Shown one piece after another: positions 8,805 to 42,593 of a DNA stretch of 64,000 nt. The notes beneath the pieces were generated by a model. The model saw nothing but the letters and a program-made list of their open reading frames with translations. It did not search any database and was not told the origin of the DNA. Origin of the DNA: Escherichia phage tuntematon; sequence record NC_052660.1. One strand, 5' to 3'. Position 1 is the stretch's first letter. Each line of letters opens with the position of its first letter. The translations under genes and the position numbers were made by a program.

Positions 8805-8893
8805 GAGTTTATACCGAGATGGAGAGCAACTTTATTGCTTCTCTGGAGATTTCAAACACAGATGTATTAATAGCCAAAACGAGGAAAGCAAAT

Positions 8894-9331: not shown

Positions 9332-9345
9332 TAAGGAGAAAAACA

Positions 9346-9939
9346 ATGACAATTTCTATTCGTACTTCCATCGTAGGTGTTAAAAGGTTGCCTAATGCTT
9401 TGCAAATCACACGCGCTTTGAGGGATACATTCTCTGCTGTGGACGAGCATAAGATGCTTGATAATCTTTCAAATTGGCCCTATTTCCATTATTTTAAAAA
9501 TGAAGATGACGAGTTTATAGACGCTGTTTCTTATGGTTATGATTTCGGTAAGGAGGTTTCTGCTGAAGAATTTGTAGCTATGGTGTTCCCAAACGGTTTG
9601 CCTACTCGCAGTAAACGTAAAAAAGGACCAAAAAACAAGAAACGTGCTACTAATAAAGCTACCATTTTCTTTACTGATGGCACACAATATACGATTAAAG
9701 ATTTTGAAGAGGTATCTTATACAGCAGGTGGGAATCTTTCTTTCTACACCATCAAAAAACAAAACTCTACGTTCAGCCATGTTTCTAACATGATTGAAAT
9801 GTTAGTAGAAGATATTGAAAGCGTAGCTGTGTTAGGTATGCATAAAAGCTTTTTAATTACAAATATTTCAGATTTCAGTGCAAGTTTATCTGGCCCTGAT
9901 TTTGAAGCCACGACCACACATTTCGCTTTTAAGGTGTAA
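9346..9939 (+). CDS. hypothetical protein
   Basis: 197 aa ORF with AGGAG RBS; no motif recognised. Confidence 0.45.
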   Translation: MTISIRTSIVGVKRLPNALQITRALRDTFSAVDEHKMLDNLSNWPYFHYFKNEDDEFIDAVSYGYDFGKEVSAEEFVAMVFPNGLPTRSKRKKGPKNKKRATNKATIFFTDGTQYTIKDFEEVSYTAGGNLSFYTIKKQNSTFSHVSNMIEMLVEDIESVAVLGMHKSFLITNISDFSASLSGPDFEATTTHFAFKV

Positions 9940-23004: not shown

Positions 23005-25601
23005 TGAGTAAGTTTACATGGGATATTGAAGCAAACGGATTGTTGAATAATGACACTATTGATTATTTAGCTAGTCCTTATCGTCTCAAAGACACATTTC
23101 AAATGCACTGTATTGTCTTAGAGAACCATGAAACAGGAGAAATAGTAGCTTTCCACGATGGCCCTAAATACATCTTTGATGGGCGTCCTTATGAAGAGTC
23201 AGATGGTAAATACACATATGTTCTTAAAGAGTATGTGGCGCAAGATTACACACATTTTCAACTAAAAGATTTCCCAGATTTTATTAATCATGAAGGTTAT
23301 TTTAAAGACAAGCCTGAATATCTGGTTGAAATGGCTGTGGCTCACAACGGTATCAACTACGACTGGTTGGCTACAAAACTGTTTTATGGATTAGATTACA
23401 GTGTTAAATATAATACGTGGGGCAAAAATAAGGTAAAACTTATTGACTCCTTGATTTTGAGTAAAGTGTTAAACCCAGATCGAAAGATTGAGGGCAAATC
23501 AGGACATAGCTTGGCAGCACTTTCTCGAAAAGCAGGTGGTGATGTAAAAATAGATTTCCGTAAAGAGATTCCAGAAGAAGATCGATTTAAGACTTTTGCT
23601 GCGGATATGCTTTATTACTGTATCTATGACAACAAAGCCAATACGAGCGTATATAATTACCTTATGGAAGAATGGGGTGATTATGATAAATGGGAAGGTC
23701 CATTTGAACTTGAACAACGTGTAGCAGACATTATTACACGTCAGGAACACCGTGGATTTGCTTTTAACATGAAACAAGCAGAAGAGAACCTTGCTTTTTT
23801 GGATGCAGAAATGGAGCGTCTTCGTTTACTCGTTGAGCCTATTTTGCCACCTAAACCAGCAACAAAAGGTTATCTTAAGGCTTTTATTCCACCTAAGTTG
23901 CAAATTAAAAAGAACTTAGAGCCAACTAACCATATGATCAATTTTGCTAAGAAACATGATGGTCATTTGGAAGAGAGGGATGGCGATTGGTGGTTAGTTA
24001 TGTTGGGGAAAGAGTGGAAACTGCCAGTTGCAGCAGATGAACCTCTATGTGATCCTAACATTCCTGCAACATTGAACGATACAACCCATATTAAAAACTG
24101 GCTTGTAGGATTAGGTTGGGTACCATCTGAATATAAAGATAAAGACTTGACTCTTAAATCTGGCACCAAGATTAAAAAGAGCGAGGAAGAACTTCAGAAA
24201 GGTATTCGAGCTTACGTTGAGCAAACTCTATCTTCTAATTTTTGTCAGGATCGTTGTGATCATCTGGAGTGCACACCGGAAACCCTGGAAAGGAAGATTC
24301 AAGAGCGTATAGCAAAAGGTAAAGGTCGCGGTCTTAAAGTATTGACTAACCCATGTTTTACCAAAGGTCAGGAAAAAGAAATTTGTCCTAACCTGCAAGC
24401 TTTGGGTGAGAAGTTTCCTTATGCTACACAGATTGTAGAATACTTAACGTATAAGCATCGTAGGAACTCTATTTTAGGTGGCGGTGCTGATTGGGAAGAA
24501 GATGAAGAAGATCAAGAATACGATAAAGGTTTCTTAGCCGCAGTAAGGGCGGATGGGCGTATTCCTACCCCAGCCGCTACATGTGATGCTGCAACCTCTC
24601 GTATGAAGCATAGATCTGTAGCTAATATTCCTCGTGTCACATCTTTGTTTGGATGGGAGATGCGTAACTTGTTTGGTGTAGAGGTTCCTAAATACTTCCA
24701 GATCGGCTACGATTTCGACTCTTTGGAAGCAAAAATTGAATCACACTACTGTTGGCGGTACGAGCCGGAGCCACACGAATATTGTAACGCTCTGTTGTTA
24801 GAGAAACCTAACGATGTTCACACAATGATGGCAAAACGTATCACTGAAACTATTGGACGTAAATTTGAACGTAGTCCTGCTAAATCTGTTAAGTATGGTA
24901 TTACCTATGGTGCACAAGCCGACAAGGTTGCTAAAACAATTGGTAGCGATAAGTTTACAGGTCAATTGGTGTTTGATGCTTTCTGGGAAGCTGCATTCCC
25001 ATTGGCGCGTCTTAAAGAACGTTTAAACGATTTCTGGGTTAAGACTGGTAAACAATATGTTTTGGGTATTGACGGTCGTAAGGTTCCTACTCGTTCTGCT
25101 CACGCGATTCTTAACTCTCTATTCCAAAGCGGCGGGGTTATCTGTGCTAAACGTGCAATGGTTATTTATGACGACATGATCGAAGAAGAAGGGCTAAGTG
25201 TTGACTTCTTTAAAGATGACTGGAAGAATAAAGACTTCGTGCAACAAATGATCGCATATCACGATGAAGCCCAGCTTGAAGTTTCTCGTAACCTTGTAGA
25301 ATTTAAATGGTTTTCACCTGAATCATTAGGTTGGAAGAAAGTAGACGATCCTGAAGAACAAAAGAAAATTGATAAAGAATGCCTTGCTAAAGTTGAAGAA
25401 TGGAAGCATAATAAGGAAAAAGAGACGGGACAAATTTGGGCTAACATTCATGAATCTCCCAAAGGTGGATGGTTTACAGCCTATAGTCGGGCAGGTGAAC
25501 TTGCTGCTTTAGCTGTTACTAAGGCTGGAGAATTTTACAATCTTAATGTTCAGCTTACTGCCGGATATGATGTGGGTAACTCCTGGGCGTCCTGTCACTA
25601 G
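23004..25601 (+). CDS. DNA polymerase, family A, with 3'-5' exonuclease domain
   Basis: 865 aa; Exo I (FTWDIEANGL); Pol A motif A-like (DFDSLEAKI), motif B (RSPAKSVKYGITYGA) and motif C (AYHDEAQLEV). Confidence 0.88.
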   Translation: MSKFTWDIEANGLLNNDTIDYLASPYRLKDTFQMHCIVLENHETGEIVAFHDGPKYIFDGRPYEESDGKYTYVLKEYVAQDYTHFQLKDFPDFINHEGYFKDKPEYLVEMAVAHNGINYDWLATKLFYGLDYSVKYNTWGKNKVKLIDSLILSKVLNPDRKIEGKSGHSLAALSRKAGGDVKIDFRKEIPEEDRFKTFAADMLYYCIYDNKANTSVYNYLMEEWGDYDKWEGPFELEQRVADIITRQEHRGFAFNMKQAEENLAFLDAEMERLRLLVEPILPPKPATKGYLKAFIPPKLQIKKNLEPTNHMINFAKKHDGHLEERDGDWWLVMLGKEWKLPVAADEPLCDPNIPATLNDTTHIKNWLVGLGWVPSEYKDKDLTLKSGTKIKKSEEELQKGIRAYVEQTLSSNFCQDRCDHLECTPETLERKIQERIAKGKGRGLKVLTNPCFTKGQEKEICPNLQALGEKFPYATQIVEYLTYKHRRNSILGGGADWEEDEEDQEYDKGFLAAVRADGRIPTPAATCDAATSRMKHRSVANIPRVTSLFGWEMRNLFGVEVPKYFQIGYDFDSLEAKIESHYCWRYEPEPHEYCNALLLEKPNDVHTMMAKRITETIGRKFERSPAKSVKYGITYGAQADKVAKTIGSDKFTGQLVFDAFWEAAFPLARLKERLNDFWVKTGKQYVLGIDGRKVPTRSAHAILNSLFQSGGVICAKRAMVIYDDMIEEEGLSVDFFKDDWKNKDFVQQMIAYHDEAQLEVSRNLVEFKWFSPESLGWKKVDDPEEQKKIDKECLAKVEEWKHNKEKETGQIWANIHESPKGGWFTAYSRAGELAALAVTKAGEFYNLNVQLTAGYDVGNSWASCH

Positions 25602-28189: not shown

Positions 28190-28228
28190 TATAAAAGAAA
28201 GGAGCCATTTGGCTCCTTTTCTTATTTA
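28190..28228. terminator. bidirectional rho-independent terminator at the convergence of the two arms
   Basis: AAAGGAGCC-attt-GGCTCCTTT hairpin flanked by T-runs on both strands, between the + strand SSB-like gene and the - strand fibre gene. Confidence 0.7.
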
Positions 28229-30894
28229 TAATTGGAAGGAATGTTGTTATAATCTGAAAGTTTTGTGCAATACCTGAATAGGTAACTATTAGCTACTCCG
28301 CCTAATGTATTTGTTAATGTTGTTCCTGTTCCTGTAAGATTTGTGCATCCACTAAAGAAAGAAGATAATGCTCCACGTTTACCACAAACAGTTAACCCTG
28401 GGTTGTCATTAAAGATTTTATTAAAATCTGTAAGTGCTAAACAACCTTGGAATGTAGCTGTTAAAGAGGTCACTTTCGTTGGAATATTATCAAACATTCC
28501 TGCTGGAACTTCTGCAAGAGAGGTGCAATCTTTAAAGGTGTAAGAATATCTTGTAACTTTTGATAGATTCTTAAATAAATCTGAAGGAATAGATGTTAAA
28601 GATGTACAACCTTCAAACGTGCTTGACATTGTTGTCAGCGAAGGAAATAAAGCATCACTGAATAATCCTTCAGGGATAGCTGTCAAACTTGTACAGCCAG
28701 AGAAGATACCACTTATAGATGTTCCGGTGTAAGATGTGTTACTAAAACAATCAGAAGTTATTCGTCTTAAGTTAGCACAACCTTTTAAGAATTGTGAGGC
28801 TGGGCTTGTAGAATAACCAATTCTGTTGCCGCCCCATAATTCTAAAAGATTTGGATTTGCTTCCATAGACACATCAACACTATTCACTACTGAAGCACTT
28901 GCAAATTCAATAGCCAGTCTATATTCTCCTGTTGGATAACTATCCACTGTAGAGAAAGCTTTATTTCTAAATATTACTTTATTTGAAGGTATTACAACGT
29001 CATCCACCTTAACTACAAAGTTAGCTGGTGTGACAGTACCCGATAAAATTGGGAACGTAATTGCCCCATCTGCCGAGTGGTTGAAATATCCGTTTAGAAC
29101 CGTTAAGCTACTACTAGGAGATGGAGCTAACTCCTTTCCCGCAACAGCATTCACCGTTAAATAAGAACTATCAGAAGCGGTAACAACACCTTGATACGTA
29201 GCTGTGCAACCAATCCTACAACCACCATCACCAACACCAGTTATTACACCAGTTGTAGGATCTACTGTAGCAACATTAGGATCTGTAGTTGTATACTCAA
29301 CAACCATACCAGGTAAGCTTGCTGCCCCTGTTGGCGTTATTTCTGCTACCATTGTTTGTGTTGTTCCTACATCCATTGCAGATAAGCTAGGGGTGTAAAC
29401 GCTCAATGTTGAAGCATATCCTCCAGAGGTATCTGATAAAGTTGTTCCTTCAGCGTTTAAGGCTGTCATACCTGCATCAAAACCACCTTCTGCATGGAAA
29501 GTCATTAAACCAGTAGATGATATTGTCATGTTTGCAGGGGCAGAAGAAGTGTATTTAATATCGAAAAGTTTACCTCCTTCTGGGCTAACAGAATGTGTCA
29601 ACTGTTTAGTTCCACCTACAATACAAATTCCTAAAGAATCTGTAGTTAAGCCAGTTGCCAGAATATCACCCGTAATCACGGAGCTTGCTATTGGTGTGAA
29701 TTTATTATAGTTTAGACCACTATTGAACAGATACGAGGCTTTCCCATCTTTCCAAATACCGGAATAATACATATCTCCATTATAAACGAAAAAGGTTCCT
29801 TGATAACCTAATTGGTTAGTAACATCCATATTCAGCGTATGAACGCTTGTGAGCTTGTTTATATCCCAAGAACCCACTCCTTCAGGTTTAACTGGTTTCC
29901 CCACTTGGAGTGGATCTCCGCTCGCAGAATCATACCCCAAACCTAAGTTTGCAGTGTAGTTCTTACCAATAGCCCACAAGGAATTATTGATCCCAACGAA
30001 AAAAGAGTGGCGGCTTGGTGGAAACTTCCATGTTGAGAAACCTGCTGCAAAGGTATCCAGTTTAGTGTAGGTTGTTTCTGTATTAGATCTAACATATAAG
30101 TAGTTTACTGTACCCGTGCCACCGGAGGTATCTCCTACAACTATTGTCTGGGAAACTGTATTGATGTAATCTTTGACATACACTGTTTCAGTAGCGGATA
30201 TCTTGGCATTGACAAAAGCTGTTGTTGTGTTATTATTACCTGCTAAACCTTTACTAGCTCCACAAACACGCAAGGTTCCCACATTGTTGACATAAGAGCA
30301 TTGGTTGTAACCTGCATCAAAAGCAACTGCTGCACTTGTTATCTGACGAGGAGTAGAAACTTCGTTAGTAGTACTTGCACCTAAACTACCTACTGTGTTT
30401 TGACCTGATCCATAAAGAACACCACTATTCATTAACCAGAGAGTGTTATTATATCCTCCCTTAACCTCTTTAAGATTAGCTAAAGAGATAGTCCCTGTTA
30501 TTACAGATGGAAAGCTGGTCCAAGTAGTTACACATGCGTCCGTACCACCTGCTGCTATAGATCCTACCAATCCTGCTGTCAATCCTGAATATTGCCATCC
30601 ACCACTGTTAGTTTTAATAACAAAACAACGATCTGCGGTAAACACATCCGCTACTACAGTAGAAGCTAAGTGGAAATTATTGAATCGTGCACTACGAGTT
30701 CCATCTGCAATCTCACCAAAGAGGTTTGCGCCTTGAGTAAACAATCTACCATCATTAAGCAAAATTGCTAAACTGCTGTTAGAATTACCAGCATTATCTG
30801 GGTAATCTAAAGCGATTACTTTTTTAACAATACCTGCTGGCAGAGGAACGACACCAGTGCTGGTCATAATAGTAAATATTGGAATTGGAAACAT
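28222..30894 (-). CDS. tail fibre/spike protein with C-terminal BspA-type leucine-rich repeats
   Basis: 890 aa; C-terminal repeats FSGCTSLTAIPEGLF / FEGCTSLTSIPSDLF / FKDCTSLAEVPAGMF / FQGCLALTDF / FSGCTNLTG; Gly/Thr/Ser-rich N-terminal part. Confidence 0.55.
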   Translation of the reverse strand: MFPIPIFTIMTSTGVVPLPAGIVKKVIALDYPDNAGNSNSSLAILLNDGRLFTQGANLFGEIADGTRSARFNNFHLASTVVADVFTADRCFVIKTNSGGWQYSGLTAGLVGSIAAGGTDACVTTWTSFPSVITGTISLANLKEVKGGYNNTLWLMNSGVLYGSGQNTVGSLGASTTNEVSTPRQITSAAVAFDAGYNQCSYVNNVGTLRVCGASKGLAGNNNTTTAFVNAKISATETVYVKDYINTVSQTIVVGDTSGGTGTVNYLYVRSNTETTYTKLDTFAAGFSTWKFPPSRHSFFVGINNSLWAIGKNYTANLGLGYDSASGDPLQVGKPVKPEGVGSWDINKLTSVHTLNMDVTNQLGYQGTFFVYNGDMYYSGIWKDGKASYLFNSGLNYNKFTPIASSVITGDILATGLTTDSLGICIVGGTKQLTHSVSPEGGKLFDIKYTSSAPANMTISSTGLMTFHAEGGFDAGMTALNAEGTTLSDTSGGYASTLSVYTPSLSAMDVGTTQTMVAEITPTGAASLPGMVVEYTTTDPNVATVDPTTGVITGVGDGGCRIGCTATYQGVVTASDSSYLTVNAVAGKELAPSPSSSLTVLNGYFNHSADGAITFPILSGTVTPANFVVKVDDVVIPSNKVIFRNKAFSTVDSYPTGEYRLAIEFASASVVNSVDVSMEANPNLLELWGGNRIGYSTSPASQFLKGCANLRRITSDCFSNTSYTGTSISGIFSGCTSLTAIPEGLFSDALFPSLTTMSSTFEGCTSLTSIPSDLFKNLSKVTRYSYTFKDCTSLAEVPAGMFDNIPTKVTSLTATFQGCLALTDFNKIFNDNPGLTVCGKRGALSSFFSGCTNLTGTGTTLTNTLGGVANSYLFRYCTKLSDYNNIPSNYK

Positions 30895-30904
30895 TTAAAC
30901 CCTC

Positions 30905-30932
30905 CATAAAAAGAAAGCCCCTTTCGGGGCTT
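30905..30932 (-). terminator. rho-independent terminator (- strand)
   Basis: On the - strand, GAAGCCCCGAAAGGGGCTTTC hairpin followed by TTTCTTTTTAT. Confidence 0.6.
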
Positions 30933-30935
30933 CTG

Positions 30936-32960
30936 TTATCGTGTTACAACAACCATGTCCACGATATCACCCACACCAGGATACGTTAATTGCAAAATTG
31001 TTACTGCGTTAGCAGTAGTTGCTATTTCTGTATCATTTAGTGCTCCATAAGACGCATCTAGTGTAACCGTGTGTCCCGTTGTATCTTGAATCAAATAAAT
31101 CATTGCTGAAAACGCTTTAGGTTTTGTAGAGCCAGTGACACCAGGCCATGCTCCAACTGTCAGAGCGTCAGTTACTGTAACAACATACATATTGGAAGTT
31201 CCAGAAGGAGTCCAAGATGCTCCAGAGTTGGCAGTAGTTGTTTCAAGTTCCATGAAACCTGCTGTAACTTTAGTTGGTGTTATAGCTTCCGTAGGATCTG
31301 ATCCTGATATTTCGATCCAGTTTCCATCAGAACGACCATACGTCAAGCCGTCTTGAGGGGCTTCTGGTATACTAGGAAGAGTTCCTATAAGTGTCCACGT
31401 AGAAGAATCTGTTTTCTTAAACACTGCTCCAGTGGTAGTATTGAAGGCGTAATCATTGATAACACCGTCTCCTGCGACTGGATTAGTTGTTGCTACAAAC
31501 CATTGTGCGCCGTCCTTACCGTTGGTCCCATTAGTACCATTGGTTCCGTTTGCTCCTGGATCACCTTTCTCACCTTTATCTCCCTTCTCGCCTTTGTCAC
31601 CTTTAATACTCCCCATGTCAACAAAAGATGCGGAATTGGTGTCTTGATCATAAGTATAGATGTAAAGATTACTGGTGTCTTCAGTTAAATAAGCATCGCC
31701 ATAGTTATTATAAACGGGGAGAGCTTCTCCATTTGCAACATGACCTTTAGCTGTAATAGATCTACCACCCAAACTACCCACATTGAGCCACGTTTGATTG
31801 TCGTCGATCCACACGTAAAGGTCATTTTTTACAATGTAGGCATCACCAACCTCCGCTACAGACGGTAGTTCTGAAACATCTGACAATTCGCCATTTACAG
31901 AAAGACCTGCACCAACCGGACCTTGGATACCTTGAACACCCTGTTCACCTTGTGGACCAGGATCTCCCTTATCTCCTTTGTCCCCCTTCTCTCCTTTTAA
32001 GGAAGCAACAAAATCTACTTCTGTCCCTTCATTACCAGCATCCAGCCAACTTTGATATGCAGATTTCCCTTCGTCTCCATCTGTTCCATCTAGACCGTCT
32101 TTACCTGCCTCACCTTGTGGACCTTGAGGACCAACAATATTACCCATGTTGACCCAAGCTGTCCCATTAGAGACATAAAGATTGCCATTGATAGAATAAG
32201 CTTGGCTTACGTTTTCAGAGTTAGGTTGTGGTAAGTTACTTGTAGAAGGCAAATCCCCACGATAATCAAAACCGTTGGCGTTAACACCAGGTGCTCCCTG
32301 TGGCCCTGTAGGACCAACATCGCCTTTATCGCCTTTTATAGAGGTAAGAAAATCATAAACAGACCCTGTATTACCATCTGCCAACCATACCTCGTAAGCT
32401 GATTTACCTTCTGGCCCAAGAGAAGAAATAAGTTTCCAAACAGAACCATCCCAAGCGTAAATCACATCACCTACAATATAACCATCCCCTGCAACGTTAC
32501 CTGTAGATGGTAGTTCACTAGTGCTTGCTAATGATCCTTTAATATTAAGTTGAGCACCAGTATCCCCTTTCAAAGAGGCAAGCCATTGTGCTTCTGTTCC
32601 AACAAAACCATTATCAAGTGCGATCTGATAAGCCGATTTACCAGCTTCAGGTATTGTTTCCGACAGATCATCAATCTGTTGCTGCACTGCCGTAAACTTG
32701 GCATTGATAATTGCTATATCATCAGCGGTCCCAACACTTTGCCATGCAAGGGAAGAAATACCACCTGTGGTGGCTGGCGTAGAGTTTGCTGGAACTACTT
32801 TAGGAAAAGTTCCTTTCCATTGGTAATAATTCCCTTCTGCTGCTAACAGCAAAACTTCACGGGAATTACGTAATGTAAAACCTGCCTCAAAGCTGCGACG
32901 TTTTCGATAAGTAGCTTCTACCAGATCGGCTATCGCACTATTAGGTCTTGTTAAATTCAT
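30936..32960 (-). CDS. tail fibre protein with collagen-like G-X-Y blocks and phage tail-fibre repeats
   Basis: 674 aa; several G-X-Y runs (e.g. GEKGDKGDKGDPGPQGEQGVQGIQGPVG) interleaved with three copies of a KSAY[QE]xWL..GN.G....F..S.KG module typical of phage tail-fibre repeats. Confidence 0.7.
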   Translation of the reverse strand: MNLTRPNSAIADLVEATYRKRRSFEAGFTLRNSREVLLLAAEGNYYQWKGTFPKVVPANSTPATTGGISSLAWQSVGTADDIAIINAKFTAVQQQIDDLSETIPEAGKSAYQIALDNGFVGTEAQWLASLKGDTGAQLNIKGSLASTSELPSTGNVAGDGYIVGDVIYAWDGSVWKLISSLGPEGKSAYEVWLADGNTGSVYDFLTSIKGDKGDVGPTGPQGAPGVNANGFDYRGDLPSTSNLPQPNSENVSQAYSINGNLYVSNGTAWVNMGNIVGPQGPQGEAGKDGLDGTDGDEGKSAYQSWLDAGNEGTEVDFVASLKGEKGDKGDKGDPGPQGEQGVQGIQGPVGAGLSVNGELSDVSELPSVAEVGDAYIVKNDLYVWIDDNQTWLNVGSLGGRSITAKGHVANGEALPVYNNYGDAYLTEDTSNLYIYTYDQDTNSASFVDMGSIKGDKGEKGDKGEKGDPGANGTNGTNGTNGKDGAQWFVATTNPVAGDGVINDYAFNTTTGAVFKKTDSSTWTLIGTLPSIPEAPQDGLTYGRSDGNWIEISGSDPTEAITPTKVTAGFMELETTTANSGASWTPSGTSNMYVVTVTDALTVGAWPGVTGSTKPKAFSAMIYLIQDTTGHTVTLDASYGALNDTEIATTANAVTILQLTYPGVGDIVDMVVVTR
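31510..32350 (-). repeat. collagen-like triplet-repeat coding blocks (four G-X-Y runs)
   Basis: Nucleotide-level 9-bp periodic repeats encoding G-X-Y triplets at roughly 31510-31610, 31915-32000, 32070-32150 and 32285-32350. Confidence 0.6.
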
Positions 32961-32996
32961 TTATCTCTCCTATCATTAGACCATTCTATTGGAAGA

Positions 32997-33016
32997 AGAG
33001 GGGGGAATCCCCCTCT
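32997..33016 (-). terminator. GC-rich stem-loop (terminator-like, weak U-tract)
   Basis: AGAGGGGG-gaat-CCCCCTCT perfect hairpin between the two fibre genes. Confidence 0.35.
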
Positions 33017-33022
33017 ATTCCA

Positions 33023-36000
33023 TTAGGTTGTTGGCACATCTACTACTGGCGTTGGGCGAATAACCGCAGTATTACCTACAGAAACATTACTGGAATCATT
33101 AGGTATGGTTTTAATTCTAACTCCAGCACTTGTAGGCGTTACAATTGGATCTGCAATGTCTATTTTAACTGGGTTAGTCCACGTATCATTATCTTGATAA
33201 GGTGCACGAGTAATAACTGTGTCCAAATCTGCTCCACCTACGCCAGCACCAGGAATACGGATACGTGTCCCTGCTGATAGAGGGTAATGATACAACCAAG
33301 AAGCATTTGTTGCTGTCCCGTTAGGAGTCAAGTTCTGTGTCAGGAAGGTATCTCCTGCCTGTGTAGCTCGAATACCGAAAGCTGGGATATCTGGAATATA
33401 TGCCCCACTTGTTGTTACAAGGAAGAACGTATTATCCGCCTTGACTATCATATCACCTTTGTCAAACTCTTTCCCTGTTGGGAAATGCATTCCATCAATG
33501 TTTCGACTAGGATTAGGCTCTAAGTAATAAACTTTGCCCGTTGTCCCTACAATAGCTCCAATACCACCTGCGATATTGGTATACATATTAGCTTCAACAT
33601 TACAGTTGACACGATGAATATCCGAGTAACGGCAACGGCTCCACTGTGGACGACCAGTAACCATCGTCTTGCCATCTGGGTAACAGTTTACGTTAACCAT
33701 TTCAAGAACAGATTTTTCTCTACGGAAGAATCCATCATAAAATGTCCCTGGACCAGATTCAGGTTGACCAACACAATCGAAGATATTACAGGTGATGTTA
33801 GACATTGAAAGCCAAGAAGCTATACCGAACAACTGCAATGCAGCGCAACGAATATTTTCAAAGCTAACTCTGTTTTCATAACCTGGCCCAGCGGAAACTC
33901 CTGCAAAAACACGCCCAGTTTTGGTGTGAATGTTACGAACAGAATAGTTAAAGCATGGGTTTGAAGGTCTACCCTGTGCCGGAACTACCGGATTACCCTC
34001 TTCGTCCAGAACTGCGTTAGTTCCCCACTCCAAATAAATCATACGGATATTACTTGCAAGTGTGCTACCGTCTGTTTTAGGTTCTCCATAAACACCGTCA
34101 ATCGTAAAATCTTTACTTCCATACATTACAACTGCGCCAGTTGCCAAACCTGTTCCAACAGATACGGTTTGATCTGGATCGCCATGAATGTTTTCGATAG
34201 AAATATTACGACCAACTTCTACGTGGACAATCTGACGGCAACGTTTTGCAAAAACGTTACGAATTGTAATATTCTTGCAATATTGATCATCAGAGATTCC
34301 GTAACCATATGGTCCTTTACCAGCTACACCGATACCGATACCCCAGTTGGACAGAGGAATAGGAGCGTTAGTCCCATCGATATTAGACAGGTAAATATTC
34401 TCAATCACACAACCATCGTCATAATGTTTATTGATGACGTTCAGTTCTATTGCATCACCTTGCATGTCCATGAAGGTAAGGTTACGGAAGACACCGCGTG
34501 TTACTGGCTCCCCTGTCCCTTGTTGAAGGATGCCATATAACCCGTTTTTAAAAGTACAATTATCAATTTCAAAAGTACCTGATATTGGGTTGCCTTGGAA
34601 TACCAAGCTACCAACTTGACCTGCGCGAGGAGCACCGTCCCACAAACAATCGAACATGCGCACAGCACCACCCCAATACATAACACGAGAGTTACGGAAA
34701 GTTGTGCCTTCTACTGTAGCATTCTGCACACGATAGTCGCGTTGACCACGGAACACACCCCCACGCAAAGTGATACCTTGAATATCAAAAGAGCTTGTCG
34801 TGAAAGTCATATCGCAACCGTAAGCATCGAGAATCTTACTTTTCGAAGCTTTTGCTGCTAACAGTGCCGCCTGGAAAGCTGCTTCTGGTGTGGTATAGGT
34901 GGTTGTATTGTTAGCAAATTCTGACAAGTAGACAACATCGAATAAATCATTGTATGTTCCACCGCGAGGGGTTAACAGTCCTTCTGTATTAGTTAGAACC
35001 CATGCGTTTGGACCTAATCCACCGCTTGTCTCCAATGTGTCAGAGGCCAAAATACTTTTTGGTAAACTCCCCGCCCAACGATAACGACCAGCACCACGTC
35101 CAATCGTCTGATTTTTAGCTGTCAGAGTTACATTATTACCAAAGCTTGTAGGCAAATGAACAAACTGTCCACGTTCAACAGCCAGTGCAGAAAGATCTAC
35201 AGATCCCCCAGAGTAAGTCATTACTCCAGAAACAGACAGGGATGTTAAAGTTCCTGTAATGTTAGGAGGTAGTGTGTAGGAAGACTGTGCTACCGGATCA
35301 TATAGGGCTTTAATACCTGTTAAAGACTGTCCTGCTGTAGCATAAGCTACCTCATCATCTAACAAACCATACTTACGAGCAATGGTTTGCAGCGGAACTT
35401 TATCCATGCTTTCTGTCAGTTCTTCAGTTTTTGTTTCTAAACTGACAAGACGGTTCTCTAAGTTAGGATCTGTATCTGCGGAAGCTACAATTTTACCAAT
35501 GTAAGCAAAAAGCTTGTTTGGTAATCCTGTTGCAGGATCATGCCCCAAAGGTTCAGATAAAATGATTTTACTATCTTCTATGCGGAAAGCTTCTCCCAAA
35601 ACCTGAATAACACCATTGATCGTAACAATAGCACTATCAAAGATGTAGGGTGGACTGATTACTGTTTCATAACCAGTTGCACCAGAATATACCCAAGGGG
35701 TGACTTCTGTTGCCAATTGTTCTGTCTTCAGTCCCCACAATACCCAGTTGTTATCTCCTACTGGAGTCCCTTGCATAGGGATTGGGTTAACCAATGTAGC
35801 GTTAGGAGCATAGTAATAACCGCTCAATACCCCATTCTGGAAATAACGAAGTTGGTTAAAAACTGTTTCGTTTGTGCCTTGCGCCCAATCTAATGGGCTT
35901 TTAAAGAAAAAGTTGTCAACAAGGGCTTTTCTCAGGGTTGGTATCAACCCTGATTCTGTTTCAATACTCTCTGTAGCACTTCCATTAATAACATCATGGA

Positions 36001-36076
36001 GTTGGTTAGATGAGAAAATAACCAGGTCTACGCCCTGTTCGAGAGACGTTGCTGGATATGTTGGGAATGTTGCCAT
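33023..36076 (-). CDS. tailspike/tail-fibre protein, possible beta-helix depolymerase domain
   Basis: 1017 aa; central region has recurring short N/G/I/V-rich strand-like segments (e.g. NITIRNVFAKRCRQIVHVEVGRNISIENIHG) suggestive of a parallel beta-helix. Confidence 0.4.
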   Translation of the reverse strand: MATFPTYPATSLEQGVDLVIFSSNQLHDVINGSATESIETESGLIPTLRKALVDNFFFKSPLDWAQGTNETVFNQLRYFQNGVLSGYYYAPNATLVNPIPMQGTPVGDNNWVLWGLKTEQLATEVTPWVYSGATGYETVISPPYIFDSAIVTINGVIQVLGEAFRIEDSKIILSEPLGHDPATGLPNKLFAYIGKIVASADTDPNLENRLVSLETKTEELTESMDKVPLQTIARKYGLLDDEVAYATAGQSLTGIKALYDPVAQSSYTLPPNITGTLTSLSVSGVMTYSGGSVDLSALAVERGQFVHLPTSFGNNVTLTAKNQTIGRGAGRYRWAGSLPKSILASDTLETSGGLGPNAWVLTNTEGLLTPRGGTYNDLFDVVYLSEFANNTTTYTTPEAAFQAALLAAKASKSKILDAYGCDMTFTTSSFDIQGITLRGGVFRGQRDYRVQNATVEGTTFRNSRVMYWGGAVRMFDCLWDGAPRAGQVGSLVFQGNPISGTFEIDNCTFKNGLYGILQQGTGEPVTRGVFRNLTFMDMQGDAIELNVINKHYDDGCVIENIYLSNIDGTNAPIPLSNWGIGIGVAGKGPYGYGISDDQYCKNITIRNVFAKRCRQIVHVEVGRNISIENIHGDPDQTVSVGTGLATGAVVMYGSKDFTIDGVYGEPKTDGSTLASNIRMIYLEWGTNAVLDEEGNPVVPAQGRPSNPCFNYSVRNIHTKTGRVFAGVSAGPGYENRVSFENIRCAALQLFGIASWLSMSNITCNIFDCVGQPESGPGTFYDGFFRREKSVLEMVNVNCYPDGKTMVTGRPQWSRCRYSDIHRVNCNVEANMYTNIAGGIGAIVGTTGKVYYLEPNPSRNIDGMHFPTGKEFDKGDMIVKADNTFFLVTTSGAYIPDIPAFGIRATQAGDTFLTQNLTPNGTATNASWLYHYPLSAGTRIRIPGAGVGGADLDTVITRAPYQDNDTWTNPVKIDIADPIVTPTSAGVRIKTIPNDSSNVSVGNTAVIRPTPVVDVPTT

Positions 36077-36079
36077 TAA

Positions 36080-36415
36080 TTACCCCTTATTCTGTGTACG
36101 TTTAACTATGTCATCTAGCATCATTTGGATAGTCGCATTCTTGAGATCCATAATCTTTTCAATTTTTTGCTCAAGGGTGTTGTTATTTGCCATTAATGTA
36201 GAGTTAATTTGATTTAGCATCTGGGTAAGTTCGGCTTTAGTTGCGTAAGTTGATTCAACAAAGACCAACTTCTTCTCTAGCTCTCGACTTTTCTCCTCCA
36301 TTTCCTCAAGATCAGAGCCGAATTTATCCATTTTTTGTTTGAAAAAGAACCAGATGACTCCGATTAAAGGGATAATTGCATCCTTGGCAAGTCCCCATGC
36401 TTCTTGAAATTCCAT
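36080..36415 (-). CDS. hypothetical protein with N-terminal TM segment and coiled coil
   Basis: 111 aa; hydrophobic IIPLIGVIWFFF followed by a charged helical region. Confidence 0.35.
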   Translation of the reverse strand: MEFQEAWGLAKDAIIPLIGVIWFFFKQKMDKFGSDLEEMEEKSRELEKKLVFVESTYATKAELTQMLNQINSTLMANNNTLEQKIEKIMDLKNATIQMMLDDIVKRTQNKG

Positions 36416-36425: not shown

Positions 36426-36965
36426 TTACTGAGTAGGTCTATCAGGCCACTGAATGTTGTTCAAGTCTTTCAGATCTAATAGAACTAAAGATGCTCGGTA
36501 TAACTTAACAGCTTTTAACCATTTTTCTTGTTCCTCTGACAAACCTTGCAACTCCTGCAAATCTGTCAAAGCACCTATTTGGTTTCCAGCCCACGTCAAT
36601 TCTGTCTCTAGTGTAGTATCCACGTCTTCTTGTGTCCAAGTATTGTGTTTTTCAAAAGTTGTTCCGTTATATCTCCATTGTCTTGGATATTCGGTCATAC
36701 CTTTTGGAACACTATCTGTAACAACAACACGCATATTGTGGGGGAATAATCCTACCGCATCTTCCCCTACACCTAAAACTAAATTATCAGTATTCAAACT
36801 AACAAAATATGCATCAGGATACTTAGCATCCAACTCTTTCGACAAATCGTACCAATCCCTGCCAGACGAATCTCTTAAAAATCCTACCCCTAAACCAATT
36901 AAAAAGAGCGTATCTTCATTAGGTTCTGGAGTATATAGTTCAAAACCATCGTAAACAATGTTCAT
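36426..36965 (-). CDS. hypothetical protein (tail-fibre region)
   Basis: 179 aa ORF between fibre-like genes. Confidence 0.35.
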   Translation of the reverse strand: MNIVYDGFELYTPEPNEDTLFLIGLGVGFLRDSSGRDWYDLSKELDAKYPDAYFVSLNTDNLVLGVGEDAVGLFPHNMRVVVTDSVPKGMTEYPRQWRYNGTTFEKHNTWTQEDVDTTLETELTWAGNQIGALTDLQELQGLSEEQEKWLKAVKLYRASLVLLDLKDLNNIQWPDRPTQ

Positions 36966-36980: not shown

Positions 36981-38012
36981 TTAGTAGCTTACTGTTACCC
37001 ATCCACCATTTACATAGTACTGCAATGGCCCAGACCAATAAGAAGCACCACGAAGTTCTTTCTTATTACCGAAAGCCCAACCAGTCATAACGTGACCAGC
37101 ATAGTAAGGGGATTCTGATACACCTAACTGAATACGTCCATTAATACGAACTGCCGTTACACGTGCATTCACTTGACTTTGAAGGGAGTTTATTTGATTT
37201 TGTAAGCTGTTTTGCAAATTATCAATACGAGAATTTAAATTGCTATTAACATTATTCAAATTGTTTTGAACACTGTTAATGTTTGTTTGTAATGTATTTT
37301 GAAGAGAGCTTAAACGAGAGTTCAAATAATCTAAGCGGACCAAAGCATTTCCATTTGAAGTGTCTTGTCCATTGTTTGATCTTGGATTATCGATTAGAAC
37401 ATAACCCGCATCATATAAACGAACGCCAGCAGCTACACTACCTGTGCTAGGATTTCTACGATAAATGTAAAGCTGACCACCGCTTTGATACTCAGCAGAA
37501 ATCTCACCATTTGTTTGTCCTGCAAAGTTTTTGAAGAATAGAGTTGCAGGATCTGTTGTGGAAGTGCCATTAACATAGATATCTCCGCCGTAAATAGCAC
37601 CACCTGCGTCACGTTTTACCAATACATTTGGTGTTACTATGGAACTAGTAGCATCTGTAATATTTGCCGACAAGTGATTATGACTGTTATCTAGAACTTG
37701 AATAGATAAAGTAACTTCTTTATCACCATTCCAAGTAGCCTCACCAGTAGCATCACCTGCCATTGTAATCTTAGTTCCAACTAAAGGTAAGTAAGTATTA
37801 GGTAAAGTTGGAAGAAAGTCATCTACCAAATAGCGAATCCATAAACCGATATTATTAAGAATCCAGTTCATTTCTTCGCAAGTCATGATTTGACCATAAT
37901 CCATACCAACTGTGCGGATGGTTTCTTTAGGTCTAATTTTGTTTGTGTTTAAAGTTCCTGGGAGCGTTACAGTTTGTGTAGCCCAGTCAGGATAATATAT
38001 TGGCTTCGCCAT
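36981..38012 (-). CDS. tail fibre-like protein with Asn/Gln-rich heptad repeats
   Basis: 343 aa; LSSLQNTLQTNINSVQNNLNNVNSNLNSRIDNLQNSLQNQINSLQSQVN repeat block. Confidence 0.4.
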   Translation of the reverse strand: MAKPIYYPDWATQTVTLPGTLNTNKIRPKETIRTVGMDYGQIMTCEEMNWILNNIGLWIRYLVDDFLPTLPNTYLPLVGTKITMAGDATGEATWNGDKEVTLSIQVLDNSHNHLSANITDATSSIVTPNVLVKRDAGGAIYGGDIYVNGTSTTDPATLFFKNFAGQTNGEISAEYQSGGQLYIYRRNPSTGSVAAGVRLYDAGYVLIDNPRSNNGQDTSNGNALVRLDYLNSRLSSLQNTLQTNINSVQNNLNNVNSNLNSRIDNLQNSLQNQINSLQSQVNARVTAVRINGRIQLGVSESPYYAGHVMTGWAFGNKKELRGASYWSGPLQYYVNGGWVTVSY

Positions 38013-38021: not shown

Positions 38022-38651
38022 TTAATCTATTTGCTTGAGAAGCGTACACATGCGTCCTGTTTCATCCCCAGTAGATTCCATATACAGGGAACCTAAACCA
38101 CCAATACCATGAGGCGGTTTGGTAGCATAATAAGAACTAAAACCAAAAGCTGATCCTGCTTTTGCTCCAAGACGGTAGCTACTAATGATAGGGAAAACAC
38201 TTAGCAACTGTTCTAAAGCTTGATCAGATTGAAGACACAGGTTGTAGAAAAACACATCAAAGGTTTTATTCAAACCTACGTAAGTATTAAGCGTTTCACG
38301 CTCTGTTCCTGTGAAACGGGCGAAGATATCAATTATGTCACCACGAGTCCCCGATGAGGCTACGCGGTAAGCCCTGATTTTTAATATTGTTCTATACTCT
38401 TCATCATCAGAGCCATTACGTTCGATCCCCATTTCTTCTCCTAAGATATCTAGGTATTTGCCTGTGGCTGTGGAGATCAAGCGGTGTTTAGCAAGATAGA
38501 TCATTGCCTGATCTATCTTTTGCTTTTCACTGGATACGATGTAGAGGAGCTTGACAATGTTAGGAGAAGATTTAAAATCTTCAATCAGAAGGTTTTTAAC
38601 GTCTTCATTGATACTGGCCCAAGTTGTTACATGGTCAACACTCACTGCCAT
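38022..38651 (-). CDS. hypothetical structural protein
   Basis: 209 aa ORF in the late operon. Confidence 0.3.
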   Translation of the reverse strand: MAVSVDHVTTWASINEDVKNLLIEDFKSSPNIVKLLYIVSSEKQKIDQAMIYLAKHRLISTATGKYLDILGEEMGIERNGSDDEEYRTILKIRAYRVASSGTRGDIIDIFARFTGTERETLNTYVGLNKTFDVFFYNLCLQSDQALEQLLSVFPIISSYRLGAKAGSAFGFSSYYATKPPHGIGGLGSLYMESTGDETGRMCTLLKQID

Positions 38652-38653: not shown

Positions 38654-40141
38654 TTACACTCCATACTCGTAAGAAATGTTATCAAGGTCAAAAGAAGGGA
38701 CAACATTATAAGCAGGAACTATATTATTCTCTGTATATTTACTGTCATCCTCAGTATTAAGTTTAACATAAACACGAAGAGAAGTCAAGCGTCCAAAAGC
38801 AAGTGCTGCATAAATAACACCTTTGATTTGATCGTTCGTTACTGAAGAACCTAATTCAAAGTAAGCTTGCAGGTTTTGTAAAGCTTCTACGATGTTTTGT
38901 TTTTCTGTTCCACTTAAAGTTGTTCCGTTGACAGTTTGATAAACAAGTTTTACAGAATACATAGCAGAAGCACCAGGGGAGAAGCGAATAATTTCTTGTC
39001 CTCCATCTTCTGTTGTAACTGTTATGTTAGTTGTTCCGTGTGTCAAAGTGTTGATTGGTTTGGTTTTATAGATAACATTTGCAATTTCTTCAGCACTCCC
39101 TCCATAAACTATAGTCTGGAAAGTCATAGCTGGAGCATGTTCTTGATCATGTAACGTAGGGTTATCATAAATCTTCACCTTAGTAACACCATCTGTAAGT
39201 AACAGAGCTTTCACAATAGCTGCTCGTGTCCCTGCGTTAGCTTCGTCAACGTTGTCATTGAAACGAGAGCGGAATTCTGCGTCTGTCTCAACATCTCGAC
39301 CAGGGGAAAATGAATAGAAGTTACCACTATCAAGATAACCTGTAAAGGTAGAAGATATCCCTGTAATAGACTCCACACCAACAGGATTGTATCCTTTCTC
39401 TGCTGCAACTACCGGAATCTCACTCCACTTGGTTCCAACCGGAACACTAGCATAAAATTTAATAGGAGTTACCAGCCCCACTGGAGTATCACTGGTTAAA
39501 GAAGTAAAACCAATTGATAAGTTACCTGAATCAGAAAATACAAGACTACGATCAGCTTCTGTTAAATTCGCCTTGATAAAAGTTTCAAGATCGGTTATAA
39601 ATGTAGAAGAACCAGGTGCAAGTGTTTTACTGTTTAGTCCTCCATCCACCGCACTTTGTGCATAAAAAGTAATATTTGGAACACCTGTAGCAGTTGCATT
39701 AGCACGAGAGATTTGATAAGCTGCAATCTTAGCATTCAACATAGTTGGTGTGCTAACATAGTAGTTCATATCACTATCAGAGTTGAAGTAAATATCCGTG
39801 CCTAACTCATAAGTCCAAGCTGCTTTGTTATTACTCTTAACATAGGCATAACCTGTACTTGCTGCTGCCCCTGCTCGATAGAAACCGCGTTTAGAAAAGA
39901 TTTCGTCAAGATAAATACCTTCTGCACCATCCAGTGTTTGAGTATTATAAACACCTTGCATACCTTCCCACAATGTGTAATCTGTGTACGCAATTATTCT
40001 AAACAGTTGTCCGATCACAGTATCTTCCGAAGTGGCTGCATCTGCACCAAATGTGTTTTTTACTGCTGTCATATAATTGTTTAGAACATCGTCAAAAGTC
40101 GGGATTACAAATCCCGCATCTGTCAAACCATATTCGTCCAT
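38654..40141 (-). CDS. hypothetical structural protein (baseplate/tail region)
   Basis: 495 aa ORF in the late operon. Confidence 0.35.
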   Translation of the reverse strand: MDEYGLTDAGFVIPTFDDVLNNYMTAVKNTFGADAATSEDTVIGQLFRIIAYTDYTLWEGMQGVYNTQTLDGAEGIYLDEIFSKRGFYRAGAAASTGYAYVKSNNKAAWTYELGTDIYFNSDSDMNYYVSTPTMLNAKIAAYQISRANATATGVPNITFYAQSAVDGGLNSKTLAPGSSTFITDLETFIKANLTEADRSLVFSDSGNLSIGFTSLTSDTPVGLVTPIKFYASVPVGTKWSEIPVVAAEKGYNPVGVESITGISSTFTGYLDSGNFYSFSPGRDVETDAEFRSRFNDNVDEANAGTRAAIVKALLLTDGVTKVKIYDNPTLHDQEHAPAMTFQTIVYGGSAEEIANVIYKTKPINTLTHGTTNITVTTEDGGQEIIRFSPGASAMYSVKLVYQTVNGTTLSGTEKQNIVEALQNLQAYFELGSSVTNDQIKGVIYAALAFGRLTSLRVYVKLNTEDDSKYTENNIVPAYNVVPSFDLDNISYEYGV

Positions 40142-40383
40142 TAGTCATCCTCTTTGGTAGATTGTGATCTGCCCCAACGTAAATCAATAAGATTTTTCAT
40201 GAGGCGAGAAGGGGTTATCATGAAAACAAAAGCCCAACCCATCCATTCAGGAATTTCTTTTTCTATTCCTAAAAAGATAAACATGCCTGTCATAACCGAC
40301 ATGCCTACAGCGTTCCAGACTTTAGTAGAACTGACTTTATTATCAGGATATGTACAGAACATACCTATTAAAAATTTTCTCAT
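40141..40383 (-). CDS. small membrane protein (holin-like topology)
   Basis: 80 aa with two hydrophobic segments and a charged C-terminus. Confidence 0.3.
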   Translation of the reverse strand: MRKFLIGMFCTYPDNKVSSTKVWNAVGMSVMTGMFIFLGIEKEIPEWMGWAFVFMITPSRLMKNLIDLRWGRSQSTKEDD

Positions 40384-40688
40384 AGTGCGTTCTCATTACT
40401 TTTTAAATCACGAGATACAACTAATTCCCCAAGGTCTACAGAACCCGCTGAATGCACAAATACAGCAGCACTAAGACTAATGGCAGTAGTACCTGGGGCA
40501 ATATCAGCAGGTAGGGAATACGCCCTTTGCGTCTCCTTATCATAGATAACCTTATACCCACCCAAATCCACACCAACTGAGAAGTAAACAACCTCAGATT
40601 GTTTAACTCCAAAGTGACGGGCTACTGCTTGTTTATTGGTTAAGATTCCGGTTGAACCTTTACCACCTTGTGAGAACATTTCGTTCAT
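40380..40688 (-). CDS. hypothetical protein
   Basis: 102 aa ORF; start overlaps the next gene's stop. Confidence 0.35.
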   Translation of the reverse strand: MNEMFSQGGKGSTGILTNKQAVARHFGVKQSEVVYFSVGVDLGGYKVIYDKETQRAYSLPADIAPGTTAISLSAAVFVHSAGSVDLGELVVSRDLKSNENAL

Positions 40689-41234: not shown

Positions 41235-42593
41235 TTAGAGCATCAGATAATTTTTTACATATCTGGCCAATTCTACCAGCGTCATTGTTTCGGTATTTTT
41301 GACCGTGCCATCCGCTGTTCCACCTAGCTGGAAAATTCCAGTTTGTCTGACTGAAAGAACTTTAGTGCTGTTTATAGATATGTTCATATTTCTGAAGTTA
41401 AATGCACCTGTCGCATCTTCGTAACCAATCCACTTCGTTACTCCGGCGACCGGACCCCAGTAAATCCTATGGTCTATATCTAAGTTTATTGCATTACTTT
41501 CTTGAAATCTCGCACCAAGAGTGTTCAGACCATATGTGAAGTTGATTCCAGTTCCGTCAGCCCGTGGACCAAGTTTTATTCCTCCATAACGATGAAGGTT
41601 AGACACTGACCCTTCGATTTTCAGCTGTTGAGTATCTTCCAAATAAGCATTTTTCCAATCTCCGGAAGGGAGCACACCACCCCTTCTAAGCCTCATGCCT
41701 ATCCACCAGCCAGACTCTCCTACTGGACGGTTTGAGCCATCTCCAACGTCAATTCCAATACCACAAGCTGAACCACCGTCCGCAGTAGTAACGATAAGAC
41801 CTCGATAAGGCCCCTCCCCTGTGGGAAGGTTTTCCGGATGAGGCTGAGATGAGAATGAATTCACCAGATTTAATTCACATCCGACTAACTGAGAAGAGCG
41901 CACTCCAGAGCCATCATTACCATTCCCTGCCTGACCCCAAAGACCCCAAACCCTCCCGTTTCGTCCTATAGCTTTACCAGAACCATGTACGCCTATAGCG
42001 TCAACTGATTTTCCAGAGGTTAATACATCACCAGCCGAAGATCTTACATAGCCCGAGACACCAATCCCAAAGGCTGACGCCTCCGGTTCAAGGGTTATCG
42101 TTCCCTGCATAGCAACATCAAACCATTTTGTGCCCCCCTCTTCCCTTTTCATCTTGGAGGTTTTTTCTGCCCAGATTAATGGGTAAGGGTTTTCGGCTCC
42201 GGCTCCGGGTAAACCGCGCTTTAATTTGAACCCACCAGAATAGTTCCTAAACGAAGGATATATATTAAACGTTGCATCAACAGTATTGGGCCAATACCCT
42301 TCTGGGACAAGGTAGGTAAGGCCCGTGTTGTTCGCGGCAGTAATAGCTACCGTATTGGATTCGGAATCCCCTTTGGCTCCGCCAGCGAACCCACCCCACG
42401 TAATTGGTTTTGGAATATCACCAATAAGACCAGCCCCACCTGAATCTTTCAACTGGGTGGCTAAAACCACCCCAGTGTCAGTAAGAAAGTTGGAAACTGT
42501 GCTTTTAACAGTCTTATCAGGTTGATCTAAAACCAGGTAATCTGAACCATTAACTTTTGATGTTTCGGGTAAATTAGTAATTGTAGTTGACAT
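41235..42593 (-). CDS. hypothetical structural protein (Gly-rich, fibre/baseplate region)
   Basis: 452 aa ORF in the late operon. Confidence 0.4.
   Translation of the reverse strand: MSTTITNLPETSKVNGSDYLVLDQPDKTVKSTVSNFLTDTGVVLATQLKDSGGAGLIGDIPKPITWGGFAGGAKGDSESNTVAITAANNTGLTYLVPEGYWPNTVDATFNIYPSFRNYSGGFKLKRGLPGAGAENPYPLIWAEKTSKMKREEGGTKWFDVAMQGTITLEPEASAFGIGVSGYVRSSAGDVLTSGKSVDAIGVHGSGKAIGRNGRVWGLWGQAGNGNDGSGVRSSQLVGCELNLVNSFSSQPHPENLPTGEGPYRGLIVTTADGGSACGIGIDVGDGSNRPVGESGWWIGMRLRRGGVLPSGDWKNAYLEDTQQLKIEGSVSNLHRYGGIKLGPRADGTGINFTYGLNTLGARFQESNAINLDIDHRIYWGPVAGVTKWIGYEDATGAFNFRNMNISINSTKVLSVRQTGIFQLGGTADGTVKNTETMTLVELARYVKNYLML

Follow-up and report, generated by a model that had tools for sequence, protein, structure and literature searches.

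Three predicted host-recognition proteins of phi92 type at the end of the tail-fibre operon of Escherichia phage tuntematon, one of them with an exchangeable leucine-rich-repeat tip

We analysed a window of 64,000 nucleotides from the genome of Escherichia phage tuntematon (NC_052660.1), concentrating on a 7.9-kb region in which three large genes encode the proteins that we call P3, P2 and P1 (Table 1). The explanation that best accounts for the whole of the data, and that we hold to be probable, is that all three are peripheral proteins for host recognition in a multi-fibre adsorption apparatus like that of phi92: P3 a tailspike related to phi92 gp150, P2 a collagen-like fibre orthologous to gp151, and P1 the variable terminal protein. 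The original prediction, made from the sequence, had placed three large fibre or spike genes here and read them as a multivalent adsorption apparatus. All three open reading frames (ORFs) are on the minus strand with exactly the limits that it gave, and the multivalent reading is supported by the gene set, which is that of gp150, gp151 and a variable terminal gene. Phage phi92 and its relatives are the textbook example of such a multivalent adsorption apparatus, the "nanosized Swiss army knife" (PMC8594841, PMC13450770). The description as fibre or spike genes holds for P2, a fibre, and for P3, a tailspike; it does not suit P1, which is predicted to be a string of globular domains.

About 60 deposited phage genomes match the DNA of the region at 96-97% identity. 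With few exceptions they are E. coli Phapecoctavirus, and by this similarity the source is a phAPEC8-like E. coli myophage of that genus (Stephanstirmvirinae). P1 and the "tail protein" YP_009986504.1 of phage tuntematon agree at 100% of their residues. In phages tuntematon and nieznany, the protein annotated as "colanic acid degradation" is identical to P3, whose match to the PHROG family of that name (phrog_6117) spans residues 186-997. Phage phi92 belongs to a sister genus, Justusliebigvirus, and shares with our region the operon order (colanidase, gp151-type fibre, variable terminal gene), the P3 anchor, a homologous catalytic body, and a gp151 whose ortholog is 60% identical to P2. Unlike phi92, P3 has an extra internal tailspike module (residues 226-400) and a catalytic domain just 33% identical. 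The terminal protein of the phi92-like phages (939 amino acids) has the same pair of Big_2 domains as P1, and its end module, resembling the head-spike fibre of gene transfer agents (GTA), is shared by other alleles of P1; it differs from P1 in lacking both the RCC1 propeller and the leucine-rich repeats (LRRs). In a recent study, the protein corresponding to P1, named TfpM1, was reported as absent from Justusliebigvirus (PMC12695924).

The prediction of a 1017-residue spike was borne out by homology to gp150 of known structure (PDB 6E0V/6E0W), since residues 426-1000 of P3 align to residues 95-623 of chain 6e0v_A with an E value of 2.3e-78. Identity to the phi92-like ortholog over this catalytic body is 33%. 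Residues 502-662 also match the NCBIfam family WcaM (E 1e-24), and PF13229 (Beta_helix) gives a weak match (E 0.011, 15.8 bits against a cut-off of 25.9). WcaM is encoded in the colanic acid gene cluster of the host. The gp150 homology, the WcaM match and the weak Beta_helix match suggest a putative right-handed beta-helix. Because gp150 hydrolyses colanic acid, according to Xu et al. 2025 as cited in PMC13450770, a depolymerase activity of P3 is plausible by analogy. The HHpred match to 6E0V of a near-identical protein from phage ABPW7 was already noted in a review (PMC11126041).

The first 215 residues of P3 are 75% identical to the N-terminus of the phi92-like colanidase and carry a precomputed Pfam match to PF26208 (Phage_phiTE_241_N). 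Within them, residues 11-127 match residues 14-132 of the long tail fibre of the Pectobacterium myophage phiTE (PDB 9CUY, chain g; E 2.6e-19). The model of the phiTE baseplate includes the matching part of that fibre, with the N-terminal bundle of the fibre in contact with the sheath initiator (PMC11972413), and this homology is the best available evidence that P3 would be anchored directly at the baseplate periphery. P3 occupies the same operon slot in all relatives examined, after the assembly protein and a small protein and before the gp151 ortholog, and is nearly invariant across Phapecoctavirus (a cluster of 169 members).

Behind the anchor, residues 226-399 of P3 match the tailspikes 4qnl, 6nw9, 5w6f, 4oj5 and 5w6h (E 1e-26 to 1e-30), which we take to be those of CBA120 and G7C, and PF18668 is found at residues 302-361 (E 2e-9). 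Residues 226-400 gave no alignment to the 804-residue phi92-like colanidase, which has a short unrelated linker of about 90 amino acids where P3 has residues 216-454. Judged from these alignments, P3 has the look of a complete tailspike to which the anchor of a long fibre has been joined. Such N-terminal tailspike domains, including PF18668, are a likeness of both P3 and P2 (residues 12-77) to the branched tailspike complexes of Ackermannviridae and G7C-like phages. In those complexes, however, the catalytic domains are unrelated to that of P3, and the P3 module differs in being internal, behind a fibre-type anchor. We considered residues 226-400 as a proven docking platform and did not adopt this view, since tailspikes that stand alone ordinarily begin with this same module; in P3 it may be merely a retained neck.

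Over its whole length (676 aligned positions) P2 is 60% identical to the gp151 ortholog, the product of the gene next after the colanidase in the phi92-like phage alia, and it corresponds to the TfpM2 of PMC12695924. Both proteins contain the Tail_spike_N domain (PF18668; E 3.6e-21 in the gp151 ortholog), and the start of P2 matches N-terminal domains of tailspikes in the PDB (E 1e-13 to 1e-5), indicating a probable attachment or neck domain. The shaft contains the collagen-like G-X-Y runs that had been predicted, four of them with 6, 8, 10 and 11 triplets. The total is 35; 2000 shuffling trials averaged 4.3 and never exceeded 19, and Pfam Collagen (PF01391) matches with an E value of 7.9e-13. 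Three copies of a repeat are likewise present (GKSAY...S[LI]KG, at residues 107, 185 and 298); the name "phage tail-fibre repeat" that they had been given is loose, because the Pfam family of that name fails to match even at E<=5, and we rejected this assignment. The shaft also has recurring LP...GDAY...W...G hairpin motifs, and several PHROG tail-fibre families match P2 in three stretches each.

Towards the C-terminus of P2 we found weak matches of the type of the T4 fibritin foldon, to a fibritin chain (1v1h; residues 503-552, E 0.0029) and to a foldon fusion (8wtj; residues 530-552, E 0.0084), and the gp151 ortholog has an equally weak Fibritin_C match (E 0.0035). The end of P2 matches the C-terminus of phrog_4549 (E 1.7e-39), and its residues 450-671 match residues 573-790 of the phiTE long tail fibre 9cuy_g (E 6.7e-8). 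The alignments thus place the anchor of this fibre on P3 and its tip on P2: by homology, a phiTE-type long fibre is split here between two proteins. In phiTE, anchor and tip belong to one fibre of 793 amino acids, whereas here they are separate, P3 carrying an enzyme body and P2 a collagen-like shaft.

P1 was modelled with AlphaFold2, both at full length (predicted local distance difference test, pLDDT, 84) and for residues 590-890, and the folds were searched with Foldseek. The N-terminal propeller, matched by PF00415 (23.9 bits against a cut-off of 21.7) and PF25390 (E 7e-11), retrieved UVR8, HERC and RCC1 with E values of 1e-13 to 1e-8 and target template-modelling (TM) scores of 0.6-0.7. 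It is followed by two immunoglobulin (Ig)-like Big_2 domains, a segment common to the terminal gene of phi92-like phages, and by a beta-sandwich, at residues 598-690 in the full-length model, and an LRR solenoid. A classical trimeric fibre or spike was rejected for P1, since every domain is confidently modelled as a globular, usually monomeric fold, and the models predict an adhesin-like protein of propeller-Ig-Ig-sandwich-LRR order.

The claim of C-terminal LRRs of BspA type was upheld. Residues 700-890 contain seven tandem repeats starting at 703, 731, 760, 787, 815, 847 and 873, with a period of 26-32 amino acids; the strict motif first proposed has two matches (731 and 760), and the relaxed motif F.[GDY]C..L has six. 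Structure prediction, which had been suggested as a check, gave a solenoid for this segment in the model of residues 590-890 (pLDDT 91.3; predicted TM score 0.89), and the fold search matched it to TpLRR and to a Bacteroides LRR_5 protein. A database search with residues 590-890 retrieved 189 relatives, many with LRR_5 (BspA type) or DUF285 domains, one of which is named a BspA family protein (Phocaeicola). Among 70 aligned homologs, LRR_5 was present in 23 and DUF285 in 21. An exhaustive HMMER search yielded 14,157 cluster representatives (E<=1e-3), and giant proteins with 10-24 matched stretches were frequent among them.

With the BspA and DUF285 (PARCEL, "26-residue repeat") surface proteins of bacteria, the LRR of P1 shares the consensus F-x-G-C-T-S-L-T-x-I-P-x-x-L-F and the predicted solenoid. 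It differs from them in the length of its repeats, 26-32 amino acids and not 23, in scoring below the Pfam and NCBIfam thresholds, and in forming the C-terminal tip of a phage operon protein and not part of a secreted or anchored bacterial protein. The same LRR type, likewise in a tail or baseplate context, is present in a 1008-residue tail protein encoded right after baseplate J in Klebsiella Reipivirus (P2-like prophages) and in BspA-family proteins of gut, jumbo and crAss-like phages. These proteins are unlike P1 in their N-terminal architectures, and identity is only about 33%. Phage tail proteins with LRRs have been annotated, their function not being studied (PMC7765460), and our search of the literature for LRR or BspA domains in Stephanstirmvirinae tail proteins, or for a characterised phage LRR receptor-binding protein, returned annotation tables only.

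Comparison of P1 alleles indicates that the C-terminal third of the protein, composed of the beta-sandwich and the LRR, is a recombining cassette. Alleles with a 99% identical propeller carry an unrelated C-terminal third that matches the NCBIfam "phage head spike fiber domain", and backbones with no more than 74-86% identity carry a sandwich-LRR cassette conserved at 90-93%, with the mosaic boundary near residue 585-590. The LRR form is present in about 34 phage records and the GTA-like form in about 31 Phapecoctavirus records, that is, in about half of the records of this genus. Phage phAPEC8 is without the LRR cassette, and its alignment to P1 is limited to the first 584 residues. In phi92-like phages the terminal gene closes with this GTA-like cassette as well, and tail proteins of siphophages and of RcapMu carry it too. 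More distant P1 orthologs (P0021, P0022 and P0025) have clear DUF285 repeats (E 1e-37 to 1e-43), and other relatives, of 565-573 amino acids, are without any cassette. As far as the alignments go, this pattern is the one expected of an exchangeable binding tip. A previous study described TfpM1 as a protein of 890 or 891 amino acids and reported that phage groups needing different secondary receptors also differ at the C-terminus of this protein; it contained no domain analysis (PMC12695924).

We also detected rearranged forms of the gene. An in-frame fusion of 396 amino acids (P0041), encoded at 8705-9895 of the assembly contig L002 (Logan SRR10359460 contig 34), joins residues 1-73 of P2 to residues ~567-890 of P1. 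It apparently originated from a 3.5-kb deletion across an overlap of about 25 bases, corresponding to positions 29194-32716 of the window. With the propeller, the Ig domains and the collagen shaft lost, the LRR cassette came to sit directly on the P2 anchor. This junction was found in none of the deposited phage genomes, where all matches to the fusion protein span its residues 73-396 only. Two further forms of P1, of 610 amino acids (P0164 and P0169, on contigs of 143-147 kb), retain the LRR cassette together with a single Big_2 domain and a portion of the propeller. Such forms suggest that P1 tolerates internal in-frame losses, or that these recur.

The P1 gene starts 41 bp after P2 on the same strand and has a strong ribosome-binding site. 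Between the stop codon of P2 and this site lies a hairpin resembling an intrinsic terminator, GAAGCCCCGAAAGGGGCTTTCTTTTT, followed by GGAGGG and the ATG of P1, and in phAPEC8 a terminator is annotated at the same place. Its position suggests that P1 is expressed at a lower, attenuated level than P2 and P3. The gp27 protein of phage rV5 shares residues 1-195 of P1 and has the same terminal position. P1 would be located on the virion and bind a receptor; the proxies for the location are the operon position and the weak detection of rV5 gp27 in virions.

Several observations weigh against the interpretation given above. For P1, rV5 gp27 was detected in virions by only three weak peptides in mass spectrometry, no Phapecoctavirus virion proteomics or structure that places P1 in particles was found in the searchable literature, all domains of P1 are of usually monomeric folds, and no known virion-attachment domain was detected in it. 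The LRR segment scores below threshold against Pfam DUF285 (PF03382; E 0.019, 15.2 bits against 25) and NCBIfam TIGR02167, "PARCEL repeat" (E 0.0028, 17.3 bits against 30), and gave no match to Pfam LRR_5 (PF13306). Since direct assignment fails these curated thresholds, the family membership of the segment rests on its homologs and its predicted fold. For the apparatus as a whole, cryo-electron microscopy of phi92 could not assign gp150 or gp151 to the density of fibre II (PMC13450770), and data from the BASEL collection indicate enterobacterial common antigen as the common primary receptor of these phages (PMC8594841). For P3, a catalytic region only 33% identical to gp150 means that the substrate may differ. 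P3 could then be a tailspike that cleaves or binds another conserved glycan, such as enterobacterial common antigen or a different exopolysaccharide, and not colanic acid, as would fit the contrast between its catalytic region and its 75% identical anchor and the need of all tested relatives for wecB, that is, for this antigen (PMC8594841). We consider this unlikely, because the homology to gp150 runs end to end across the catalytic body (E 2e-78), because the similarity to WcaM (E 1e-24) links the fold family to colanic acid, and because the near-invariance of P3 in its 169-member cluster fits a target that is itself conserved, such as colanic acid.

For P1, it is conceivable that the protein is on the virion and serves something other than binding to the host receptor, its Ig and LRR domains holding the phage to mucus glycoproteins, to the biofilm matrix or to the surfaces of animal cells. 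It would then raise encounter rates and not set the host range, as has been proposed for Ig-like capsid decorations. Propeller, Big_2 and LRR are indeed the combination seen in adhesins on bacterial surfaces, and giant proteins with multiple repeats are common among the relatives; moreover, assemblies with in-frame deletions of most of P1 and relatives without any cassette suggest that it is dispensable for infection, and its gene stands behind the terminator-like hairpin. We nevertheless judge this explanation to be rather improbable, since P1 is the last gene of a tail-fibre operon, its cassette is swapped between lineages as receptor-binding tips are, and the alternative cassette is present in tail and baseplate proteins of other phages. 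In addition, "Wecvirus" groups with the 890- and 891-residue forms differ in their dependence on a secondary receptor, although other fibres differ between them too (PMC12695924). A more radical alternative is that P1 is no virion component at all, being a late non-structural or released protein called a tail protein by its position only. In its favour are the lack of Phapecoctavirus proteomics in the searchable literature, the lack of a recognisable fibre-attachment domain among those detected in P1, the hairpin ahead of the gene and the in-frame truncated and fused forms. This seems very improbable to us when set against the co-directional position of P1, 41 bp downstream of P2 with a strong ribosome-binding site, and against the weak detection of rV5 gp27 in virions. 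The last-gene position in the fibre module is, besides, kept across Phapecoctavirus, Seunavirus-like, Vequintavirus and phi92-like phages, and the PHROG families that match P1 belong to the tail category.

If the region does encode three host-recognition proteins of a phi92-type apparatus, P3 would be a trimeric tailspike, held at the baseplate periphery by its first ~215 residues much as the phiTE long fibre is. Its body would act as a colanidase-type hydrolase that clears exopolysaccharide, most likely colanic acid, and opens the way to the outer membrane, while residues 226-400 may be a neck or a docking site for a second protein. P2 would be a trimeric collagen-like fibre held together by the G-X-Y runs and the foldon-like hairpins, with a small C-terminal tip, related to that of the phiTE fibre, that would bind a conserved surface structure. 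P1 would be an accessory adhesin of lower abundance, and its cassette, here the beta-sandwich with the LRR solenoid, would add or alter specificity for hosts or surfaces. A more specific version of this, which we offer as tentative and rather doubtful, is that P1 (TfpM1) is a monomeric LRR-tipped accessory receptor-binding protein docked on a trunk formed by P3 and P2, with a protein or other non-glycan ligand and with the cassette as a two-state host-range switch. If true, P1 would give coliphages their first LRR-based receptor-binding module with a defined function.

Table 1. Genes, predicted protein domains and regulatory elements of the region and of its upstream neighbourhood (positions in the 64,000-nucleotide window)
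Feature	Positions	Strand	Residues	Basis
P3, 1017 amino acids	33023-36076	-		ORF list; phrog_6117 "colanic acid degradation", E 4e-282
P3 virion (baseplate) anchor region, putative	35432-36076	-	1-215	phi92-like colanidase N-terminus; phiTE fibre
P3 internal tailspike N-terminal module including PF18668	34877-35401	-	226-400	PDB matches; Pfam
P3 colanidase-like catalytic body (putative right-handed beta-helix) and C-terminal domain	33077-34801	-	426-1000	6e0v; WcaM
P2, 674 amino acids	30936-32960	-		ORF list; phrog_15437 "tail fiber protein", full length
P2 Tail_spike_N (PF18668), probable attachment or neck domain	32730-32927	-	12-77	Pfam, E 1.2e-19
P2 shaft: three GKSAY repeats, four collagen G-X-Y runs, LP...GDAY beta-hairpin motifs	31503-32642	-	107-486	
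P2 foldon-like hairpin (528-552) and C-terminal tip domain (558-674)	30939-31379	-	528-674	
Intrinsic-terminator-like hairpin between P2 stop and P1 ribosome-binding site/start	30914-30933	-		terminator scan
P1, 890 amino acids	28222-30894	-		ORF list; phrog_11922 "tail protein", full length
P1 RCC1-like seven-bladed beta-propeller	29680-30894	-	1-405	PF00415; PF25390; AlphaFold2 model
P1 two Ig-like (Big_2) domains	29140-29667	-	410-585	PF02368, two stretches, E 2.6e-9; AlphaFold2 model
P1 beta-sandwich, first part of exchangeable cassette	28810-29127	-	590-695	AlphaFold2 models
P1 seven-repeat LRR solenoid of BspA / DUF285 (PARCEL) kind, predicted	28225-28797	-	700-890	
Bidirectional terminator hairpin at convergent junction past P1	28197-28220	.		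terminator scan; GC skew sign change
Baseplate J-like wedge protein	38654-40141	-		upstream of P3
Baseplate protein	38022-38651	-		upstream of P3
Mu/P2-type short tail fibre	36981-38012	-		upstream of P3
Tail-fibre assembly protein	36426-36965	-		upstream of P3
Small protein	36080-36415	-		directly upstream of P3

The gene neighbourhood supports placing P3, P2 and P1 at the distal (3') end of a late baseplate and tail-fibre operon. The order of wedge J-like protein, baseplate protein, short fibre, assembly protein, small protein, colanidase, fibre and terminal protein is the same in phages nepoznato, phAPEC8 and the phi92-like alia. The GC skew flips sign at about 28 kb, and together with the terminator hairpin at 28197-28220 this indicates that P1 closes a leftward late operon that converges on rightward replication genes.

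The adsorption apparatus extends beyond these three genes. The variable tailspike locus, at the position of phi92 gp143, has an ORF of 452 amino acids at 41235-42593 (-), for which no PHROG match was found, and two small ORFs. A stand-alone ORF of 102 amino acids at 40380-40688 (-) corresponds to a tailspike N-terminal anchor only (phrog_18484, residues 1-95, E 1e-45). Phage nepoznato has one tail protein of 921 amino acids at this locus, and a similar split into 102 and 552 amino acids has been mentioned for phage BME3 (PMC12210895). At 42602-44755 (-) there is a protein of 717 amino acids (phrog_6040) with a Calx-beta-like motif at its start, which is probably the conserved sugar-deacetylase fibre component described in the BASEL paper, part of the same apparatus and outside the span reported here. 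Two observations concern other aspects of these genomes. The DNA polymerase ORF at 23004-25601 (+) encodes 865 amino acids here and in phAPEC8, 1189 in nepoznato and 1110 in L002, which suggests an insertion (an intein or a homing element) or another split of the gene in some relatives. In these genes, the records H11, H118 (Campylobacter phage B15), H145 (Acinetobacter phage ABPW7) and H123 (Pseudomonas phage PsgM04F) are 90-99% identical to E. coli Phapecoctavirus, and their non-Escherichia host labels are doubtful; the same doubt was voiced about ABPW7 before (PMC11126041).

The apparatus and the phage group were already known, the proteins stand in the databases with annotations, and the multivalent model goes back to the work on phi92. 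Absent from the searchable literature are the LRR nature of the P1 tip, the clean exchange of its cassette and the split of a phiTE-type fibre over P3 and P2; these new points are useful annotations and leave the understanding of the phage group unchanged. Phapecoctavirus has among the broadest host ranges of E. coli phages, with phages AV125 and AV126 infecting 84 and 65 of 198 strains producing extended-spectrum beta-lactamase (ESBL) or AmpC, respectively (PMC10844046). These phages are used in cocktails, and the assignment of genes to fibres is unsettled even for phi92 (PMC8594841, PMC13450770). The practical value of our analysis is therefore a domain-level map, with an anchor on P3, a tip on P2 and, on P1, a delimited cassette in two common forms whose boundary near residue 585-590 can serve directly as a site for engineering or for comparisons among natural isolates.

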